This document shows positions 3,957 through 17,790 of a stretch of DNA of 64,000 nucleotides, one piece after another. The first letter of the stretch is position 1. Each line of letters starts with the position of its first letter. The notes under the pieces were generated by a model. It saw only the letters and a list, made by a program, of their open reading frames with translations, did no database searches and was not told the DNA's origin. The DNA is from Patescibacteria group bacterium (GTDB lineage Bacteria > Patescibacteriota > Microgenomatia > UBA8517). The stretch spans positions 27,522-91,521 of the forward strand of contig JBBTWD010000016.1 of NCBI GenBank assembly GCA_038062915.1. The letters are read 5' to 3'. Made by a program: the position numbers and the translations under genes.

Positions 3957-4361
3957 TTATTTTTCGCACTTGAGGATTCTGTCCCATCTTTTACATTGCT
4001 GATTGGTGAAACACCTCTTAAATCGTGTGGAGCATGAACCCCCTCCACAGGGATTATCCGCGTCACACTTGGTATGATTTCCGCCGCCACCCCCTCCGTC
4101 ATCGCTGGGTTCATAGCAACAAACAAGATCGCCTACACTACAGTCATCCGTCCTCCTTTTTTTATCTGGATGTCTACACTCAGGTTCAGACACACAATCG
4201 CCTCGTAATTGCAAACAAGTATCCCCCGCTGCTTTTTCTCGGATGTCTTGGGACTGCTTGACCAGAAGTACGCCGGCGACGATGGCGCCGACCAAAAAAA
4301 TAAGACTAACCAACTGCCAGGGCTTTTTATTTTCCCTTTTTCCTTTAAAAATTCTAAACAT
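3957..4361 (-). CDS. small membrane-anchored cysteine-rich extracytoplasmic protein
   Basis: 134 aa. N-terminal TM anchor, a poly-Gly stretch, and 15+ Cys in C..C spacing (CDADNPCGGGSCSTRFKRCFTNQQCKRW). Confidence 0.4.
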   Translation of the reverse strand: MFRIFKGKRENKKPWQLVSLIFLVGAIVAGVLLVKQSQDIREKAAGDTCLQLRGDCVSEPECRHPDKKRRTDDCSVGDLVCCYEPSDDGGGGGGNHTKCDADNPCGGGSCSTRFKRCFTNQQCKRWDRILKCEK

Positions 4362-4391
4362 GCTTACGTATAAACGCTATTACAAATTAAA

Positions 4392-4931
4392 TTAAATTGC
4401 AAGTAGCAGTGAGCCCATTATGACGAGTATTCCAAGTCCTGCTCCAAATACTGTTGGCCAGCTGGTTCCAGAGTTTGGAAGAGATGGCTGTGTTGGTGTT
4501 TGGGCCGAGGCACCAGCACATGTACAGTCAGTTTCTGCTACACACGAGGCGTTTCGGCAGAATCCCTGGTAGCAAATAAGATCACTCCCGCAGTTACTAT
4601 TGCTCCCACATGTTCCTCCGCAGGAATTTGGAGTACCGGGAGGTGAAGTTGGGGATTCAGTTGGCGTTGATGTTGCGGTACTGGTTGCCGTAGAAGTGGC
4701 GGTCGATGTTGCGGTTGCCGTGGCTGTAGCTGTAGCTGTTGATGTCGCACCAATCGTAAATGACAATGAGCAATTATTTGTTTCTGCAGCCCTTGGTTTA
4801 CTAGATGGTACATTTGGAGCCACCGGCTGTGCTCTCAATTGGTAAAGCCTGATAGCGGTAAAAATAGCAACTCCAGCTAGAACTAGAGTTATGATTATTA
4901 TTATTCCGGTTACAAATTTAGATTTTTTCAT
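4392..4931 (-). CDS. membrane-anchored protein with Thr/Ser/Ala-rich repeat linker and Cys-rich knot-like domain; C-terminal LPNSG + hydrophobic tail
   Basis: 179 aa. N-terminal TM, TATATATATSTATSTATSTATSTPTESPTSPP linker, CGGTCGSNSNCGSDLICYQGFCRNASC, and a C-terminus of SLPNSGTSW + 20 hydrophobic residues. Confidence 0.45.
   Translation of the reverse strand: MKKSKFVTGIIIIITLVLAGVAIFTAIRLYQLRAQPVAPNVPSSKPRAAETNNCSLSFTIGATSTATATATATATSTATSTATSTATSTPTESPTSPPGTPNSCGGTCGSNSNCGSDLICYQGFCRNASCVAETDCTCAGASAQTPTQPSLPNSGTSWPTVFGAGLGILVIMGSLLLAI
4660..4760 (-). repeat. short in-frame tandem codon repeats (GCxACx units) encoding the (T-A/S-T-A) linker
   Basis: Plus-strand gcggtNgccgtNgNtgtagctgt periodicity is visible directly. 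Confidence 0.7.
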
Positions 4932-4932
4932 A

Positions 4933-5796
4933 TTATTTCCATTGATTTAATATTTTAACTTGTGCTGAAATGTTAAATGTTGTTGTTCCTGCCGGAATTG
5001 TATAAAGATCACAAAATTCATTCTTGCCCCCGCCCGGCCTTTTACCTATCGTTTCCGGCCTTGTGGTTCCATTAACAGTGAACCTTGCGGCTGTAAATTG
5101 AACTCGATCTTGTGCTGGGGTAGTAGTTCCAGTTGCACAGAAATTAACTTGGTTATTAGCTTTGAGGCTAGAAAGCTGAGCTACACTTAGTTGCGTCCAT
5201 GTTGGAGAATAGGCTTTAATATTTTGACAACTAGCGGTGGGAGTGCCATCACCATCATTTACAACACATCTACCACACTTGTCACCAGAAAGAGGTATCC
5301 ATTTACATTTATCTGCCTTTTCTATAGTACATTCCCGTTCGGCAGTTGCGCAGTCTGTTGCCCCAGATTCAGAACAAGTTTCTTCGTATGCTTTTTCTGA
5401 AACACTTTGTTTTTGTTGGGTCAAGATTACTCCTCCGGCGATGCCGCCAATTAATAAAAATAATCCCAATATTGTTGCGATGATTTTTCCTCCGCCGAAT
5501 TTTTTCTTTGGTGGTGGGGAAACCATCATTGAGGACACGTCGTCTAGTGGTGCAGCTGTTCCACCACTTTCACTGGCGATTGGAGACTGGAGATTGGAGA
5601 CTGGCTGCGAGTCTTCAGTTGGCATAGATGAAATATCTGAAGTATCTGCCATTTGAAAGTCAGGGACAGTTATAACTGGATTATCGTCAACTGGGGGAAC
5701 TACCGGAGTTTGAACCGGATCTGTTTGAGTTGGGTCCAACTTCGCTGAAGCTCCGCTGGATAAATCAGATTGATTGGGCATGTTTATAGGTAACAA
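4933..5796 (-). CDS. bitopic protein: Pro/Ser-rich disordered N-terminal region, single TM, Cys-rich extracytoplasmic domain
   Basis: 287 aa. KKKFGGGKIIATILGLFLLIGGIAGGVIL TM at about residue 110. 14 Cys in the C-terminal half. Internal 12-bp tandem repeat (gattggagactg x2) at 5561-5590. Confidence 0.4.
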   Translation of the reverse strand: MLPINMPNQSDLSSGASAKLDPTQTDPVQTPVVPPVDDNPVITVPDFQMADTSDISSMPTEDSQPVSNLQSPIASESGGTAAPLDDVSSMMVSPPPKKKFGGGKIIATILGLFLLIGGIAGGVILTQQKQSVSEKAYEETCSESGATDCATAERECTIEKADKCKWIPLSGDKCGRCVVNDGDGTPTASCQNIKAYSPTWTQLSVAQLSSLKANNQVNFCATGTTTPAQDRVQFTAARFTVNGTTRPETIGKRPGGGKNEFCDLYTIPAGTTTFNISAQVKILNQWK

Positions 5797-8814: not shown

Positions 8815-10476
8815 TTGATAATGAAATCAATCAAAAACCTATTTAATTCACAACAAAAGACTGTTCTTTCCGCCGCGACAATTATTATGTTTATGGTTGT
8901 TGCCAGTCGAATCCTGGGTCTTGTTCGTCAAAGAGTTTTGGCAAGTTTTTTTACGCCAGATGAACTTTCACTTTTCTTTGCCGCGTTTCGCTTACCCGAT
9001 TTGGTTTTTGAGGTATTAGTTTTTGGGACCTTTTCAGCCGCATTTATCCCAGTTTTTACAGGACTTATCAAAAAAAACAAAAATGAGGCTTGGAAGGTGG
9101 CTACAACAGTTGTCAATATTGGATTTTTAGTTTTTTTAATTTTGGCAGGATTTTTAATCTTTTTTTCATCTCATCTTTATGGTGTTTTAGCTCCTGGATT
9201 CACAAATGGACAACAAGTAACAATAGTAAGGCTTACTAGAATTCTGTTTGCGGCCCAAGGCTTTTTTGTTATTAGTTACGTTTTAACTGCAGTTTTAGAA
9301 TCATCACGGCGTTTTTTAATTCCTGCGGTCGCTCCACTTTTTTATAACCTAGGAATCATTTTTGGTACACTAATTTTTGCTCCCAAGTTTCATCTTATGG
9401 CCCCAGTCATCGGGGTTATAGTGGGCTCTGCTCTGCATCTTTTAATTCAACTCCCCCTTTCTTTAAAACTTGGTTTCAGATTTAGGTCAAAAATTTCCAT
9501 TGATGATAATGTAAGAAAAATTGGAAGACTTGCACTCCCCAGAATTATTGAAGTTTCAGTGATTCAGGTTATGAAAACGGTCGAGCTTTTTTTGGCTTCA
9601 TTAATTTCAACTGCTTCATATACTTATTTTACTCTAGGCAACACCATTCAACTTATTCCAGTTGGACTTTTTGGGACATCGATAGCCAAAGCATCTCTAC
9701 CCACACTATCAAGACAGGTGGGCCAGCCAGGCGTTTTCAGGAAAACACTTTTTGATGCTCTATATCAGATGGTTTTTTTAATTTTGCCAGTTTCGGCCAC
9801 ATTGATAGTTTTAAGAATCCCCATAGTAAGGCTTATTTTTGGGACAGATATGTTTGATTGGGAAGCAACGGTCCAAACCGGAATGGTTGTTTCGGCATTC
9901 GCCGTTGGAGTTATCTTCCAAGCTGGTGCAAGTCTACTTTCAAGGGCATTTTATGCCATGCACGATACAAAGACTCCCGTTATTATTTCTATAATCTCAT
10001 TAATTATTAATATTAGCTTGGCATTTATTTTTGTCAAAGTTTTTAGTCTTCCCTCTTGGTCTCTGGCACTTGCCTACTCTATCGGAGTTTTTATACAAGG
10101 CGCCACTCTTTTTATAGTAATCAATAATCGTCTTAAAAATGGTCCGATTTGGAAACTTCTTTCCCCACTTTTTAAATCAGTATTTTCATCCGTAGTTTCA
10201 GGTGTCGTGATGTATTTTATGCTCAAGTTTTTTGATAGATGGGTTTGGATAAAAAATTCGCCGGCCAATCTTCCTTTTGAGAGGTTTGTTTTGGATACAA
10301 GATATGCCGGAAACCTTTTGGCATTAACCATGTTGGTAATTTTATCGGGCGCCTTGGCTTACTTTTTAACTTCTTATTTACTAAAATCTCAAGAATTAAC
10401 TAATTTTTTAAACTTGTTTAAACGATTTTTTATTTCAAGAAAAATAGAACCCATTTCAGACCTTGACAAGGGTTAG
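8815..10476 (+). CDS. murJ: lipid II flippase MurJ (MviN)
   Basis: 553 aa with 14 TM segments. ILGLVRQRVLASFFT N-terminal motif. Confidence 0.8.
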   Translation: MIMKSIKNLFNSQQKTVLSAATIIMFMVVASRILGLVRQRVLASFFTPDELSLFFAAFRLPDLVFEVLVFGTFSAAFIPVFTGLIKKNKNEAWKVATTVVNIGFLVFLILAGFLIFFSSHLYGVLAPGFTNGQQVTIVRLTRILFAAQGFFVISYVLTAVLESSRRFLIPAVAPLFYNLGIIFGTLIFAPKFHLMAPVIGVIVGSALHLLIQLPLSLKLGFRFRSKISIDDNVRKIGRLALPRIIEVSVIQVMKTVELFLASLISTASYTYFTLGNTIQLIPVGLFGTSIAKASLPTLSRQVGQPGVFRKTLFDALYQMVFLILPVSATLIVLRIPIVRLIFGTDMFDWEATVQTGMVVSAFAVGVIFQAGASLLSRAFYAMHDTKTPVIISIISLIINISLAFIFVKVFSLPSWSLALAYSIGVFIQGATLFIVINNRLKNGPIWKLLSPLFKSVFSSVVSGVVMYFMLKFFDRWVWIKNSPANLPFERFVLDTRYAGNLLALTMLVILSGALAYFLTSYLLKSQELTNFLNLFKRFFISRKIEPISDLDKG

Positions 10477-10491
10477 CACTCGAGATAAGAT
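10463..10491 (+). promoter_or_regulatory. sigma70-like promoter (TTGACA-17-TAAGAT) for hrcA operon
   Basis: TTGACA at 10463-10468 and TAAGAT at 10486-10491. Overlaps CIRCE. Confidence 0.45.
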
Positions 10492-10499
10492 ACTGCTAA
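10473..10499 (+). promoter_or_regulatory. CIRCE operator (HrcA binding site)
   Basis: TTAGCACTC-gagataaga-TACTGCTAA versus consensus TTAGCACTC-N9-GAGTGCTAA. Lies 3 nt upstream of the hrcA ATG. Confidence 0.75.
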
Positions 10500-10501
10500 C
10501 T

Positions 10502-11242
10502 ATGGCTGAAGGATTAACCGCAAGGCAAACACGAGTCTTAAAAGCTATTATCGACGAGTATATTGAAACTGCCGATGCGGTTGGCTCCGAGGCTCTCGAT
10601 AAAAAATATAATTTAGGGGTTTCTCCGGCTACGATCAGAAATGAGATGGTTTCTTTGACAAAATCTAATTATCTTAAACAACTACATACATCTGCGGGTC
10701 GCGTCCCCACCCCAACCGCGATGAAATTTTACATCGATCAACTAATGGAGGAAAAAGAGATGAGTTTGGTCGATGAAGTTAAAGCAAAAGAGGATGTTTG
10801 GGATTCTAGGGCAGACTTAAAGGATCTAATGGAGGAGGCAACACATGCTTTGTCTGATGCCACCCAAAGCCTGTCTGTTTCTGCGCTCCAAGAAGGAGCA
10901 AGTAATAGGTTTTGGCATTCAGGCTACTCCCATCTTTTTGAGAACCCAGAATTTTCAGATATACAGGCTTGTGCAAATATATTTTCATTACTTGAACAAG
11001 GAGAAAAAATGCAAAAGCTTTTTTTTGAGATTTCAGAACCCACCTCTCCTTTAGATATTTTATTTGGAGAAGAATTAGGCTGGCCGGAGTTGACGCCAGC
11101 TGGTATTATTGCGACACATTTTAATGTTCGAGGAAAACCCGCCATGCTTGCTATAATCGGACCATCAAGGGTTTCTTATTCGACACTGATCCCAGTTGTT
11201 AAATATTTTAAGGGATTAATTGAGGAGGTAGCATCAGCATGA
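10502..11242 (+). CDS. hrcA: heat-inducible transcription repressor HrcA (short form)
   Basis: MAEGLTARQTRVLKAIIDEYIETADAVGSEAL...SPATIRNEM. First gene of the hrcA-grpE-dnaK order. Confidence 0.75.
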   Translation: MAEGLTARQTRVLKAIIDEYIETADAVGSEALDKKYNLGVSPATIRNEMVSLTKSNYLKQLHTSAGRVPTPTAMKFYIDQLMEEKEMSLVDEVKAKEDVWDSRADLKDLMEEATHALSDATQSLSVSALQEGASNRFWHSGYSHLFENPEFSDIQACANIFSLLEQGEKMQKLFFEISEPTSPLDILFGEELGWPELTPAGIIATHFNVRGKPAMLAIIGPSRVSYSTLIPVVKYFKGLIEEVASA

Positions 11243-11629: not shown

Positions 11630-13540
11630 ATGAGTAAAATCATTGGAATTGATTTAGGAACAACAAATTCGGCCCTTTCTGTAATGGAGGCAGGACGCCC
11701 AGTGGTTATAGCAGCCTCTGACACCGGTCGTAATGTTACCCCATCAGTTGTTGAACCTATTAAAAATTTAGTGGGGGATGTGGCTAAACGTCAAATGATT
11801 CTTAACTCTAAAAATACAGTTTTCTCTGCCAAGCGCCTTATGGGTAGAAGATTTGAAGATAAAGAGGTCGAAAGAACTATCAAAATGGTTCCTTACGAAA
11901 TTGTAAAGGGTAAAAATGGAATGGCCGATATTAAAATTGGTGACAAAGTATTTACACCTCAAGAAATTGGAGCCAGGGTTTTAATGAAACTCAAAAAAGA
12001 TGCAGAGGCTTATCTTGGTGAAAAAGTAGAATCAGCAGTAATTACGGTTCCGGCCTACTTTGATGATGCCCAAAGGCAAGCTACGAAGCAAGCGGGCGAA
12101 ATTGCAGGACTTAAAGTTGAGCGAATAATTAATGAACCAACCGCGGCAGCTCTTGCATATGGGCTAGATAAGAAAAACGCTCATAAAATTGCTGTCTATG
12201 ATCTTGGTGGTGGAACATTTGATATTTCAGTGCTTGAATTGGGTGAGGGGGTATTTGAAGTTAAGGCTACAAATGGCGACACTCACCTTGGAGGAGATGA
12301 TTTTGATCAAACAATTGTTGAATATATAGTTGATGAATTTAAAAAGGAAAATGGCGGGCTTGATCTTTCAGCTGACAAACAAGCACTTCAAAGAGTAAGG
12401 GACGCCGCGGAGAAAGCAAAAATCGAGCTTTCTGCCGCAGAAGAAGTTGAAATAAACCAACCATACATTACTCAAAAAGATGGTCAACCACTTCATTTAA
12501 CTATGAAGTTGACAAGAGCAAAACTAGAAAGCTTGGTTGGGGAGTTAATCGAAAAAACAATGAAGCCGGTAGCTTTAGCCTTGAAAGACGCCAAATTAGA
12601 CCCACACGATATTAATGAAATTATTTTAGTAGGTGGAATGACAAGAATGCCAAAGGTGGTCGAAACTGTTAAAAATTTCTTTGGCAAAGATCCAAATAAA
12701 TCAGTCAACCCAGACGAGGTAGTAGCAATTGGAGCAGCTATTCAGGGCGGAGTATTAGGTGGAGAAGTAAAAGATATTTTGCTTTTGGATGTTACCCCAC
12801 TTACTTTAGCGATTGAGACTTTGGGTGGAGTAGCTACACCAATGATTCCAAGAAATACCACTATTCCTACAAGTAAAACTGAAACATTTTCAACTGCGGC
12901 TGATAATCAAACACAGGTTCAAATAGTGGTAACTCAAGGAGAGCGCCCAATGAGTGCCGATAATAAAACACTTGGAACGTTTACTCTTGATGGAATTCCT
13001 CCGGCCCCAAGAGGAGTGCCACAGGTTGAAGTAACTTTTGATATGGATGCATCGGGCATTTTGACAGTTACCGCAAAAGATAAAGCATCGGGAAAGACTA
13101 CAAACATAAAAATCACAGGAGCAGTGGGACTTTCCGACGAGGAAGTAAAAAGAATGCAGGAAGAAGCCGAAAAACACAAAGATGAAGATGAAAAGAAAGC
13201 AGAAGGTATTAAAGCAAAGAATAATGCTGACGGCCTAATTGCAACTGCAGAAAAGGCATTAAAAGATGCTGGAGACAAGGTTGATACTAAAATAAAAGAA
13301 GAAGTAGAAGAAAAAGTAAAAGCGCTTAAAGAAGTAGCGGGGAAAGACAGCTCAACTAAAGAAGAAATAGAAACCGCAACAAAAGATTTGAGTGATGTTT
13401 TGTCTTCAGTTGGCCAAGCGATGTATGGGGATCAAAACAAAACCAGTGAACCGGAGAACAGTGGAACCGAAGAACCGAAAACTGAAGGTTCTGAAAAGAA
13501 AAAACCAGAGGATGTTGAAGAAGGACAGGTGGTTGAATAA
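11630..13540 (+). CDS. dnaK: chaperone DnaK (Hsp70)
   Basis: [18 protein letters not shown] and other canonical motifs. 636 aa. Confidence 0.95.
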
Positions 13541-13905
13541 ATGGAATCTTTTTTTGGTCTTGTTGAAAGATATAGTTTTTCAAAATCTTCCAGTGAAGAA
13601 AAGGCTTTAAAAATATTGGCACAGCCAATAAGATATTATTTGAGGTTGGAATTGATGATGTTTTGGATCGAAATGCTACCGTCCTTAATTTAAAAAATTT
13701 AGGGAAGCCCTTTAATGGGGAATCGCTTCTGAAAATTATTTCTCGTGAAGTTTGGGAACAGGATGTGTTAAATGATAAAAAGGGAATTTTAATATCATTA
13801 CCAACAAACCATATTTCAAATTTAACAATCGATGATGTTGTTGTTAATTTGAAAGGTAAAGAATCAAACAAATTTGAATTGTCTTTTGCAACTTCATCTA
13901 AATAA
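13541..13905 (+). pseudogene. frameshifted ORF remnants of unknown origin
   Basis: A 51-aa ORF (MESFFGLVERYSF...) and an 80-aa ORF in a different frame occupy the spacer. No recognisable family. Confidence 0.25.
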
Positions 13906-13941
13906 TTACAAATTTATAATTTCTAGTTTAGAATAAGGGTT

Positions 13942-14004
13942 ATGTCTACAAAAACTGATTACTACGATATTTTAGGTTTAATTTTGGCAAGTGTTAGCCT
14001 TTGA
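13942..14004 (+). pseudogene. dnaJ-like 5' gene fragment (J-domain start only)
   Basis: [13 protein letters not shown] then divergence and a stop after 20 codons. The true dnaJ 430 bp downstream starts [13 protein letters not shown]. Confidence 0.55.
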
Positions 14005-14018
14005 GTTTTTTGAAGATT

Positions 14019-14117
14019 TTACTTTAGTTTGAGGAATTCTTTTTCTGAAGAGTCAGCCTTGTTGATGAAATTTCTTAACAAGCCAGGTTTTACATCTTTG
14101 GTTTGAATGAAGGCATT
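14019..14117 (-). pseudogene. HicA toxin C-terminal remnant
   Basis: The frame directly after the hicB stop reads NAFIQTKDVKPGLLRNFINKADSSEKEFLKLK. This resembles the HicA C-terminus (..KPGTLRSILKQAGL..EEF..LL). The N-terminal catalytic half is absent. Confidence 0.4.
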
Positions 14118-14384
14118 TTAGGCAGTTAAGACTGGATAAGAAACAGCAATTTTTGTAAAAAATGTTTCCGTTTTTTCTCTTGGAATCTCCAACCCTTCTT
14201 CTTCCATAACAGCAATTACACCTGAAATAGCCTCTTTGATGTTTCTAACTGCTTCTTCTATAGTTTCCCCTTGAGTTGCACAACCATCTAAAGCGGGAAC
14301 GGTAACAATATAGCCACCCTCTTCGGCAGGCTCAAATAGAACAGTATACTCTAAAATATTTTTGGTAATCTTTTTCATACCCAA
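14118..14384 (-). CDS. hicB: HicB-family antitoxin (N-terminal RNase H-like domain only)
   Basis: YTVLFEPAEEGGYIVTVPALDGCATQGETIEEAVRNIKEAI matches the HicB/UPF0150 core. Confidence 0.6.
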   Translation of the reverse strand: MGMKKITKNILEYTVLFEPAEEGGYIVTVPALDGCATQGETIEEAVRNIKEAISGVIAVMEEEGLEIPREKTETFFTKIAVSYPVLTA

Positions 14385-14421
14385 AATTATATCATAGATT
14401 TGGAAACAGATTTTGATATAA

Positions 14422-14448
14422 TTAGCATTATTAATTTATGAGTGCCAA
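14422..14448 (+). promoter_or_regulatory. degenerate CIRCE-like inverted repeat overlapping dnaJ start codon
   Basis: TTAGCATTA-ttaatttat-GAGTGCCAA (arms 7/9 and 8/9 versus consensus). The ATG of dnaJ is at 14438. Confidence 0.4.
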
Positions 14449-15304
14449 AACAGATTATTATGACATTTTGGGAGTAGGTAAGACTGCTTCTAGTGATGAA
14501 ATTAAAAAGGCATATAGAAAGCAAGCTCTCGAGTGGCATCCGGATAGACATAAAGATGAGAAAGAAGTTGCTGAAAAAAAATTCAAAGAAATAAACGAAG
14601 CATATCAAGTATTGTCCGACCCAAATAAACGCTCTTCATATGATCAATTTGGCTCAGCGGGTGGCCCAACAGGAAATCCATTTACTGGAGGTTTTTCGGG
14701 GCAATCCAGTCCGTTTACATATACCTGGTCATCGGGTGGGGACAGTAACCCGTTTGCAAACGCAGATTTTGGCGATCCATTTGATATTTTTGAAAGTTTC
14801 TTTGGTGGGGGAAATCCATTTGGAAGGTCTCAATCAAGATCTATTCCTCGTTATTCAATGACAATGGACTTTATGGATGCAGTAAAGGGCATAGAGAAAG
14901 AGATAGAGATAGAAAGAGGAAAAACAAGAAAAATTAAAATTCCTGCAGGAATTTATGAAGGAGCAAGAATTAATTTCGGAGACTTTACTCTTTCAGTTAA
15001 TATTAAACCCCATAAGGTATTTGAGCGCCAGGATGACGATATCTATGTAACAGTTGGCATTCCTTTTTCACTAGCAGTACTTGGAGGAGAAATTAGTGTT
15101 CCTGCGATCGATGAGGAAATAAAAATTAAAATTCGCCCAGGGACACAAAGCGGAGCAATGGTACGCCTTCGCGAACGAGGAGTTCCCCATCTTCATGGAA
15201 GAGGCCGTGGTGATGAATACGTGAGAATTAACATCCTAACACCAGATAAACTCACTCGAAACCAAAAAAGCATACTTGAAGAAATGAAAGAAGAGGGGCT
15301 TTAA
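14438..15304 (+). CDS. dnaJ: DnaJ-family co-chaperone lacking the CxxCxGxG zinc-finger region (class B/CbpA-like)
   Basis: J domain with HPD (EWHPDRH), Gly/Phe-rich region and C-terminal substrate-binding domains. Only 288 aa and no Cys repeats. Confidence 0.8.
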
Positions 15305-16455: not shown

Positions 16456-17790
16456 ATGAAAAAAAGAAATCCAATAGTTGTAGTTTTGGGGCATGTAGAT
16501 CACGGTAAGACTACGCTTCTTGATGCAATTCGAAAAACTAGTGTGGCTTCACGAGAGGCAGGAGGAATTACGCAAAGTATCGGGGCTTCTGTTGTAAACG
16601 GAATTTGTTTTATTGACACACCGGGGCACGCCGCCTTTGGTAAAATGAGGGGGCGTGGGACAAGGGTTGCAGATATAGCCATCTTGGTTGTTTCAGCAGA
16701 TGATGGGATTAAACCACAAACAAAAGAAGCGCTTGAGATGATTAAGGAAGCTAAAATTCCATTTATTGTTGCTCTAACAAAGATTGATATAGTAGGAGTT
16801 CGTCTAGAGATAGTTCGTGGCCAGCTTGAAAAAGAAGGGCTACTCTTTGAAGGTAGAGAAGGAGAGGTTCCACTCGTTTCACTTTCTGCCAAAACAGGAG
16901 AAGGGTTAAAAAACCTTCTTGAAACAATCACACTTCTTTCTGAAGTTAATAATGTTTCAGGCGACCTCAATGCTCCACTTGAAGCGGTTATCATCGAGTC
17001 GTTTAAAGATGCAAGAGGCCCGGTTACCAATATCATAGTCAGAAACGGGAATATTAAAGTTGGGGATCAAATTGATATAGATAACTTATCAGGAAAAGTA
17101 AGGGGAATCTTTAATGATAAAGGAGAATCTGTCCGAGAAGTCCTACCCGGTGAACCATCTCAAGTTATTGGTTTAACCCAAAAACAAGATGTTGGTCCAA
17201 GAAAAGTTTTGGGTGATGCTAGACGGTTGGCAGAAGATGAACTGCCAATTGTATTAAAAGCAGCAAATTCAGGGATACTTGAGGCAATTATTGCCTCACT
17301 ACCCCCTAAAGTTATAGTTGTCGACTATGGAATTGGAGACGTTTTAGGTAATGATATTCTAACTGCAAAAGTAGGTAATGCCTATGTTTTTGCCTTTGGA
17401 ACAAAAATTCCAAATAACATTGCAAAATTAGCAGAAACAGAAGGAGTAAGGGTTAAAAAATTTGATATCATTTATGAGTTAATTTCAGAAATTGAAGAAA
17501 CCTTAAAAGGTGGAAAAGTTCAAATATTAGGTAAGGCTCAAGTTTTAGCAAGTTTTCCTTTTAATAAAAAAAGCGTTGCTGGGTGTAGAGTTTTAACCGG
17601 TAGATTTAATAAGGGTGATCGCTTAATTTTAACCAGAGACGAAAAAGAAATTGGAAAAGCAAAAGCCCTGACAATTAAAAAACAGAAAGTAGACACAACT
17701 TCGGTTGGGGCTAATGAGGAATTTGGAGTAATCTTAGAACCCCAACTTGATTTCCAAGTTAATGATGTGTTACTATCGGTCACAAAATGA
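16456..17790 (+). CDS. infB: translation initiation factor IF-2 (minimal, 444 aa, no N-terminal extension)
   Basis: [17 protein letters not shown] and TKID G-domain motifs. Begins directly at the G domain. Confidence 0.85.
   Translation: MKKRNPIVVVLGHVDHGKTTLLDAIRKTSVASREAGGITQSIGASVVNGICFIDTPGHAAFGKMRGRGTRVADIAILVVSADDGIKPQTKEALEMIKEAKIPFIVALTKIDIVGVRLEIVRGQLEKEGLLFEGREGEVPLVSLSAKTGEGLKNLLETITLLSEVNNVSGDLNAPLEAVIIESFKDARGPVTNIIVRNGNIKVGDQIDIDNLSGKVRGIFNDKGESVREVLPGEPSQVIGLTQKQDVGPRKVLGDARRLAEDELPIVLKAANSGILEAIIASLPPKVIVVDYGIGDVLGNDILTAKVGNAYVFAFGTKIPNNIAKLAETEGVRVKKFDIIYELISEIEETLKGGKVQILGKAQVLASFPFNKKSVAGCRVLTGRFNKGDRLILTRDEKEIGKAKALTIKKQKVDTTSVGANEEFGVILEPQLDFQVNDVLLSVTK

Follow-up and report, generated by a model that had tools for sequence, protein, structure and literature searches.

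What is the 897-bp spacer that separates the chaperone genes dnaK and dnaJ in an uncultivated, Woesebacteria-like groundwater patescibacterium, and how did it arise? We asked this of a 64,000-nucleotide stretch of contig JBBTWD010000016.1 (hereafter, the window), in which the gene order is hrcA, grpE, dnaK, the spacer (positions 13541-14437), dnaJ, nusA, infB. A sequence-only reading had called the spacer a decay island; its coordinates and contents are correct, and the description largely holds, as two genes are broken (the toxin gene hicA and an open reading frame, or ORF, that we call orfX) and a stub of dnaJ is present. We think it fairly probable that two conserved chaperone genes here flank a recombination hotspot and that the spacer is a piece of accessory, non-essential DNA in it, now partway through decay by deletion. 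A recombination scar combined with deletional decay is the best reading, which makes the locus a case of ordinary decay at a hotspot and no new system. The features of the spacer and its borders are listed below; L-numbers denote the relatives' loci or assemblies that we compared, and P-numbers denote compared proteins.

11630-13540, plus strand: dnaK (636 amino acids), left border of the spacer; 82% identical to the DnaK of L001
13541-13693, plus strand: N-terminal piece of orfX, in frame 1; residues 7-33 (13559-13639) match family positions 15-41
13597-13905, plus strand: C-terminal piece of orfX, in frame 3, with an annotated TTG start at 13663; matches family positions 129-210
13942-13980, plus strand: dnaJ 5' stub of 13 codons, located with a J-domain profile; its ORF continues to a stop at 14002-14004 (codon 20)
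13981-14018, no strand: 38-nt junction of the dnaJ stub and the hicA stop; holds the sole single-nucleotide polymorphism (SNP) within the spacer (13981 A>G, in L164)
14019-14099, minus strand: hicA 3' remnant, the last 26 codons (KDVKPGLLRNFINKADSSEKEFLKLK) plus the stop, from blastn, alignment, and profile
14100-14116, minus strand: hicA 5' remnant, the ATG (14116-14114) plus 5 2/3 codons, from alignment A1
14118-14378, minus strand: hicB, intact, encoding a small HicB antitoxin of 86 amino acids without a DNA-binding domain (Pfam, PHROG); 76-78% identical to the HicB of relatives whose hicA is intact
14386-14394, minus strand: predicted extended -10 (TGATATAAT) of hicB, read from the sequence, 7 nt from the ATG and conserved in L167
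14414-14422, plus strand: predicted extended -10 (TGATATAAT) of dnaJ, abutting the next feature
14422-14448, plus strand: predicted CIRCE (controlling inverted repeat of chaperone expression) no. 2, TTAGCAtTa-N9-GAGTGCcAA, whose right arm is dnaJ codons 1-4
14438-15304, plus strand: the live dnaJ (288 amino acids), right border of the spacer; J-domain and DnaJ_C, no zinc-finger domain (Pfam)

When scanned directly against Pfam and NCBIfam, neither the hicA remnant nor the dnaJ stub nor the orfX pieces had a match, because these sequences are too short or their family is not described. We used custom profiles built from relatives instead. These profiles excluded the window's own sequence and were compared with all 2417 six-frame segments of the 64-kb window. 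Rfam gave no match in the spacer, and homology was looked for in the 38-nt junction but none was detectable.

Four independent assemblies (L161, L162, L163, and L166) match the spacer at 100% identity. Two slightly divergent, low-coverage contigs (L164 and L165) have no indels in the spacer and differ from the window only at the contig ends and at the SNP at 13981. Faulty assembly therefore does not account for the frameshifts and fragments. The divergent ends (around 20% divergence, at window positions 13300-13375 and 14546-14548 for L164 and 14461-14485 for L165) lie inside dnaK and dnaJ; either these contigs became chimeric at their ends, in conserved genes, or a strain living alongside has come to share the spacer through recombination. 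The closest DnaJ proteins are from metagenome-assembled genomes (MAGs) of Patescibacteria/Woesebacteria (60-69% identity), and metagenome contigs reach at most 62%, so the host is a Microgenomates-type member of the candidate phyla radiation (CPR) without a close sequenced relative. We also sought near-identical strains or the state before the event and found none (best DnaJ, 69% in genomes and 62% in metagenomes). The HicB protein of the window was found, 100% identical, on contigs of Hainich groundwater assemblies and of Logan assemblies.

In hicA, there is a single clean internal deletion of 118 nt, and the residual ORF encodes MPSFKPKM-stop (14116-14090). Relatives have an intact HicA of 71 amino acids at the same place, with matches to PF07927 at 3.7e-19 and 1.5e-22. 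In alignment A1 (the window and relatives), the window's ATGCCTTCATTCAAACC stands opposite the relatives' ATGACTTCGTTTAAACC; 118 gap columns follow, and the window resumes at AAAGATGTAAAACCTGG (K-D-V-K-P-G). The deletion junction is between 14100 and 14099. The deletion takes codons 7-45 and shifts the frame. The relatives' RQ(S/K)GSHL segment falls inside it, and the G-S-H segment is thus missing from the hicA of the window. In the HicA proteins of E. coli and B. pseudomallei, this conserved segment carries the catalytic histidine.

The sequence-only reading had recognized the C-terminus of HicA and thought that the N-terminal half was gone. The homology is right: a HicA profile built from L167 and L172 only had its sole match at 14022-14117 on the minus strand (E = 2e-10, profile positions 44-71), and blastn aligned the remnant, in syntenic position, with the 3' end of the intact hicA of L167 (77% identity, E = 7e-13). 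The start of the gene, however, is kept, and the lesion is internal. (With Pfam silent on the remnant, the module has no intact HicA partner, the toxin with a dsRBD fold that belongs to a class 2 hicBA module.) The hicA ATG lies 1 nt past the hicB stop codon, and the 26 C-terminal codons of hicA are out of frame with this ATG and, by coincidence, in frame with hicB. Because they happen to share the hicB frame, NAFIQT is read before the HicA C-terminus; these six residues are hicA's own first codons (ATG CCT TCA TTC AAA CC) read out of frame.

Two other ideas about hicA were rejected. A single illegitimate joint that truncated both hicA and dnaJ does not fit, as the 3' end and stop of hicA are intact and the lesion is internal. 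We put down to chance a match of nine amino acids (SEKEFLKLK, E = 0.84) between the remnant and an off-frame stretch in the dnaK of L003.

In L172 and L169, both breakpoint positions carry the direct repeat CTAAAGA (7 nt), whose copies are 117 nt apart. This suggests deletion by slippage between short repeats, with the relatives standing in for the ancestral sequence of the window's lineage. As for the age of the deletion, the proportions of replacement and synonymous differences (pN/pS) between the remnant and L167 are 0.16/0.52, which is indistinguishable from the 0.14/0.60 for two intact hicA genes. The deletion is therefore probably young relative to the divergence of the lineages, given that these are small numbers.

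The antitoxin gene next to this remnant, on the minus strand, is intact, as had been proposed from the sequence. Its product passes the curated cut-off of Pfam HicB_lk_antitox (PF15919; E = 3.8e-11, 43.6 bits against a cut-off of 27), and it also matches UPF0150 in Pfam (E = 2.9e-6) and the HicB-like family in PHROG (E = 4.7e-20). The predicted -10 of hicB is one half of a perfect 10-nt inverted repeat, and the other half is the dnaJ -10 at 14414-14422. With the -10 just 7 nt from the ATG, the hicB mRNA is probably leaderless, and hicB may still be expressed from this promoter as an orphan antitoxin.

Is the toxin-antitoxin cassette a recent, private integration? No: the block of hicA, hicB, divergent promoter, and dnaJ is syntenic and alignable, with hicA intact, in at least two other species-level lineages (L167/L168 and L169-L176). 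The HicB of the window is 76% identical to the HicB of L167/L168 and 67% identical to that of L169-L176. In both lineages, the order is dnaK, variable genes, an ORF of 143 amino acids, hicA, hicB, a divergent control region, and dnaJ-nusA-infB, and hicB and hicA are 2 nt apart or overlap by 4 nt. The 143-amino-acid ORF is convergent to hicA and is unrelated to the dnaJ stub.

In two relatives, hicB has other surroundings. At 705-1010 of L169, the neighbor of hicB is not dnaJ but a C-terminal fragment (96 amino acids) of an aspartyl/lysyl-tRNA synthetase (tRNA-synt_2). The L169 assembly carries the same HicB as L170/L172, the breakpoint is exactly at the dnaJ -10/CIRCE region, and this arrangement is either a rearrangement or a misassembly at the same control region. 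The hicBA of L003 is unrelated to that of the window (32% HicB identity) and is oriented like dnaJ, and its hicA is frameshifted.

The debris next to dnaK comes from one broken gene. The orfX family consists of P0123 (211 amino acids) and P0124 (213 amino acids), is rare, and its two members are 58% identical to each other. Across the window, the best match of a P0123 and P0124 profile was 13597-13902 (E = 2e-13, profile positions 129-210), and the runner-up was the adjacent and collinear 13541-13690 (E = 0.04, profile positions 15-41). By BLASTP, the N-terminal piece matches the family at E = 4e-4; for the C-terminal piece, tblastn gave E = 5e-11 and a HMMER search of 1.84 billion proteins reached P0123 at E = 3.5e-5. 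A word-indexed search with the orfX ORF found only the ORF itself. Since the two pieces are adjacent and collinear and match the two ends of the family, they are the remains of one gene that has lost about 87 codons and changed frame. The earlier description of frameshifted ORF debris is accurate to this extent (one gene in two frames), but a simple frameshift near 13595-13600 is wrong: frame 1 is coding up to about 13640, and about 87 codons are missing as well. The frame-1 piece abuts the dnaK stop codon, and beyond residue 33 it is out-of-frame read-through. At the end of the N-terminal homology, near the presumed deletion point, TATTGGC-ACA-GCCAATA (13614-13630) makes up a perfect stem of 7 bp around a loop of 3 nt.

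P0123 and P0124 have no Pfam or PHROG match, and an AlphaFold2 model of the P0123 family was unusable (predicted local distance difference test, or pLDDT, of 38.7). The genomic context is not fixed: the gene is after dnaJ in L177 and beside rpmA in L178. NCBI annotates an ORF of 80 amino acids (P0121) at orfX. Residues 56-88 of the C-terminal piece match eight repeats in P0122, a protein of 5306 amino acids (E = 1.4e-9), and large surface proteins of CPR bacteria may thus contain the small domain of the P0123 family as a repeat module.

Between orfX and hicA is the dnaJ stub. With a J-domain profile from 13 relatives, the live dnaJ scored E = 4e-41 and the next match was 13927-14001 on the plus strand (E = 4e-4), which covers profile positions 1-13 from the Met. 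Only two six-frame sites in the window reach at least 7/13 identities to the stub peptide: the stub itself and the start of the live dnaJ. These two are identical at 11/13 residues and at 28/39 nucleotides, in line with the claim that a nucleotide-divergent fragment resembling the DnaJ N-terminus lies here. The profile searches of the HicA and DnaJ fragments, which the sequence-only reading had put forward as the way to disprove it, both gave matches above chance. The stub has no J-domain signal past codon 13 and hence no complete J-domain with an HPD motif, whereas the live dnaJ has the full domain. No convincing CIRCE was found in the region upstream of the stub, and the 20-codon ORF that carries the stub is not a gene.

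By the Nei-Gojobori method, stub and live start differ at 7 of 7.5 synonymous sites and at 4 of 31.5 replacement sites (Fisher's exact test, p = 2e-5), and two of the four replacement differences are a TCT/AGT serine switch. As synonymous sites are saturated and replacement differences are few, the two copies diverged while both encoded a working DnaJ N-terminus. To judge by this pattern of substitutions, the stub is from a long-separated functional allele of dnaJ and not a recent local copy. At the nucleotide level, it is closer to the dnaJ starts of L001 and L172 (31/39 each) than to the dnaJ of its own genome (28/39).

The comparison with related genomes, in addition to the intact hicA, turned up parallel stubs. 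In 11 relatives, the gap between dnaK and dnaJ is 3-280 bp. In L003, L007, and L008, it is 0.7-4.5 kb and holds unrelated cargo, and it is also enlarged in L167 and L169. In L081, a CIRCE leader like that of L005 and a 10-codon stub, MANGKSDYYD (the start in L005 is MPNGKSDYYD), are followed by 65 nt and then the live dnaJ; these 65 nt share ACGGGGCAAG with the leader of L172. In L172, the promoter, CIRCE, and ATGGCTGCTAA are identical to the dnaJ start of L167, and then come 98 nt and a different, live dnaJ start. The L172 stub thus comprises four codons of an L167-type start, inside the CIRCE. The junctions of the stubs differ (codon 13 in the window, 10 in L081, and 4 in L172). L003 has a mirrored scar, a second, divergent dnaK 3' end (67 codons, 4191-4394) after an inserted membrane-protein gene. 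Because the L081 and L172 stubs lie at most about 100 nt upstream of a live dnaJ, and given the dnaK 3' stub of L003, we take these stubs to be scars of allele or segment replacement. The variable cargo and the stubs of dnaJ and dnaK together point to a hotspot flanked by core genes, with exchange of segments between diverged genomes.

Some of these gaps have further contents. The 2.9-kb gap of L003 (3169-5940) contains a membrane protein of 240 amino acids, the dnaK 3' duplicate (4191-4394), an ORF of 146 amino acids, hicB, hicA, and a NUDIX-like gene. Its unrelated hicB is at 5046-5309 and its frameshifted hicA is at 5316-5523, which is a second, independent inactivation of the toxin at the same hotspot. 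In L172 (1792-1890, minus strand) and L081 (1568-1632), the insert between the old and the live dnaJ start is 65-98 nt long, GC-rich, and structured, with bounds CCCCG...CGGGG. From the old start, an upstream ORF extends across the insert and ends 2-10 nt short of the real ATG. The insert may represent a miniature mobile element or else a leader for translational coupling. Rfam has no match for it, and the L172 leader gave only a far sub-threshold chance match.

How does the cell tolerate a spacer inside what had been described as a heat-shock operon? Two further features are needed here.

10463-11242: hrcA (from the list of ORFs)
10473-10499, plus strand: predicted CIRCE no. 1 (TTAGCACTC-N9-tAcTGCTAA), at the hrcA-grpE-dnaK promoter; overlaps a promoter-like TTGACA-17-TAAGAT

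As a CIRCE, we counted a 9-bp inverted repeat TTAGCACTC-N9-GAGTGCTAA beside a promoter in a genome that encodes HrcA. A scan of the 64 kb gave two matches (0.01 expected). CIRCE no. 2 has three mismatches, still fits the sequence definition, and is adjacent to the predicted promoter, and hrcA is present. TGnTATAAT is found at the same place upstream of dnaJ in L167, L172, and L003. A second CIRCE at dnaJ occurs in the window and in most of the relatives with enlarged gaps that we scanned (L003, L007, L008, L082, L167, and L170/L172), while the relatives with short gaps have one CIRCE, at hrcA, and none has a second at dnaJ. If the predicted promoter and operator work as their sequences suggest, then dnaJ is an independent unit under HrcA control and the operon is split. 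The flanks of the spacer are indeed dnaK and dnaJ, but dnaJ would be a separate unit rather than part of one heat-shock operon, and junk between the two genes would be tolerated because dnaJ has its own HrcA-controlled promoter.

The annotations of three neighboring genes also deserve comment. The listed TTG start of hrcA (10463) is the TTGACA of the promoter-like site, CIRCE no. 1 lies within the first 13 codons, and relatives align from residue 12-18, so that hrcA probably begins with the Met codon located at about 10502 (MAEGL...). The only dnaJ at the locus encodes a protein made up of J-domain, G/F-rich linker, and DnaJ_C, which lacks a CXXCXGXG zinc finger and resembles CbpA or class B proteins. 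The DnaJ proteins of all close relatives (290-302 amino acids) apparently have the same architecture. Downstream of nusA, the infB-like gene (16456-17790) encodes 444 amino acids that begin directly with the GTPase domain, as compared to 476-493 amino acids in relatives, and its product appears to be an N-terminally minimal initiation factor IF-2.

We propose the following history. The hicBA module sits divergently beside dnaJ, as in related Woesebacteria-like lineages. One deletion, probably recent and perhaps by replication slippage between short repeats, inactivated hicA, and orfX lost about 87 internal codons. The dnaJ stub would be the scar of recombination between diverged genomes, with homologous exchange at one end (within dnaJ or dnaK) and an illegitimate joint at the other, so that the displaced 5' end was left behind. 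The replaced segment may have been either hicA-hicB-promoter-CIRCE-dnaJ 5' or orfX-dnaJ 5'.

Several observations count against this history. A sliding-window comparison of dnaJ found no mosaic breakpoint and singled out neither donor nor direction. With a length of only 39 nt, the stub has a weak phylogenetic affinity, and it shares Ser2 and Thr5 with the live dnaJ and with no relative, which could indicate an origin within the lineage. No relative in either collection exceeds 70% DnaJ identity, which is too distant to show what the locus looked like before the event. The N-terminal match of orfX is marginal if taken alone (E = 0.04), and the promoter, the leaderless start, and the function of the CIRCE are predicted from consensus sequences.

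The alternative that survives best, which we nevertheless consider unlikely, descends from the earlier claim that a complete second dnaJ or cbpA degraded in place: a whole J-protein paralog lay between orfX and hicA and was whittled down to 13 codons. In its favor, the ATG of the stub has an AGGG-containing stretch 4 nt upstream, the stub diverged as a functional coding sequence would, and internal deletions have clearly removed parts of the other genes in the spacer. However, nothing beyond codon 13 has a J-domain signal, two dnaJ genes were found in 0 of about 30 related loci, and the stub matches the orthologous DnaJ N-termini of the clade from Met1. Also, the stubs of L081 and L172 are just 65-98 nt from the live dnaJ, where a whole paralog is implausible. 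We found no evidence for the complete gene.

Somewhat less probable is that hicBA, the promoter, the CIRCE, and a replacement dnaJ 5' end form a site-specific or Campbell-type element, with the stub as attL and the live start as attR. The topology fits exactly (a displaced 5' end, the cargo, and a restored 5' end with a new promoter), stubs of the dnaJ 5' end recur in three lineages, and some known elements, such as the dusA-targeting islands, rebuild the 5' end of the gene that they target. But we found no integrase or recombinase among the ORFs of the spacer or in the enlarged gaps of L167, L169, L172, and L003, and a repeat search found no terminal repeats flanking the spacer beyond the 39-nt pair of dnaJ starts, which are 72% identical. 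Furthermore, no stub lies beyond hicA in the relatives that share the hicBA-dnaJ block, the cargo varies between lineages, and the junctions of the stubs are scattered (codons 4, 10, and 13).

Another reading, which we regard as improbable, is that the recurrent dnaJ stubs in the window, L081, and L172 and the dnaK 3' stub in L003 are not random scars but record a targeted process in Microgenomates/Woesebacteria. Integrase-free cassettes with a promoter, a CIRCE, a replacement dnaJ start, and sometimes hicBA would enter through a single crossover, either in the ultra-conserved sequence that encodes DYYDILG or in the CIRCE hairpin. If this were true, each insertion would rewire the heat-shock control of dnaJ.

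We put still less weight on a recent tandem duplication of the dnaJ start with neutral drift of the upstream copy. The Ser2 and Thr5 that set both copies apart from all relatives compared would fit, but neutral drift would affect replacement sites as much as synonymous sites, which are saturated, and the regions upstream of the stub and the live dnaJ have no similarity. Finally, there is very little reason to think that nothing is decaying and that the 80-amino-acid C-terminal domain protein of orfX (annotated by NCBI, with a domain that is repeated in the 5306-amino-acid protein) and HicB (intact, with an apparently intact promoter) are selected products in a spacer that is almost free of polymorphism, as the collinear N-terminal debris in another frame and the broken hicA are hallmarks of pseudogenization, and a stand-alone homolog of the 80-amino-acid protein was sought but not found.

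We return to a recombination scar with deletional decay and ask how it compares with known systems. In class 2 hicBA modules (Gerdes 2024, mBio; PMC10865869), hicB precedes hicA and encodes a small HicB (63-103 codons) without a DNA-binding domain. The window has this order, and its HicB of 86 amino acids has the HicB domain only; unlike those modules, the toxin is destroyed and the antitoxin half alone is intact, and the module is divergent against dnaJ with a 59-bp control region common to both. Orphan antitoxins are common and have been proposed to be degrading toxin-antitoxin pairs or anti-addiction modules (Horesh et al. 2020, Nucleic Acids Research; PMC7192599). Here, too, an intact antitoxin adjoins a disrupted toxin in its original context, but syntenic relatives reveal both the exact lesion and the intact state of ancestral type, and the host is a reduced-genome CPR bacterium instead of Klebsiella.

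Two other comparisons concern the scar and the control of dnaJ. The scar itself has parallels in the clade, with variable cargo between conserved genes and divergent partial duplicates of the ends of flanking genes at the cargo border. Such patterns bring to mind homology-facilitated illegitimate recombination, reportedly described by de Vries and Wackernagel in 2002 and by Prudhomme et al. in 2002, and integration hotspots flanked by core genes, which Oliveira et al. are said to have described in 2017. The difference is that the mechanism here is read from scars only and that uptake of DNA in this lineage is presumed. In class I heat-shock regulation of the Bacillus type, HrcA and CIRCE control an hrcA-grpE-dnaK-dnaJ operon. 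The window shares the hrcA-grpE-dnaK order and the CIRCE at the operon promoter, but its dnaJ is detached, with its own predicted promoter and a second putative CIRCE in which dnaJ codons 1-4 make up the right arm. All of the components are of known kinds: a class 2 hicBA whose toxin is deleted, an orphan antitoxin, a pseudogene from a small, uncharacterized family, a recombination scar, and HrcA/CIRCE. Only the recurrence across lineages of dnaJ 5' stubs and of start codons embedded in a CIRCE is mildly unusual.

The main use of these results is in annotation: hicA and orfX should be treated as pseudogenes and the 20-codon ORF as no gene. The locus is a textbook case of the decay of a toxin-antitoxin module, in which the toxin is lost first and an orphan antitoxin is left, together with a recombination scar. 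Beyond this, the locus is of modest value in two ways. As an insertion or replacement hotspot with readable scars across a CPR clade, the dnaK-dnaJ gap is evidence of gene flow between diverged, uncultivated, reduced genomes. And the predicted CIRCE in the start of dnaJ, seen only where dnaJ is detached from dnaK, may illustrate how regulation survives the splitting of an operon.

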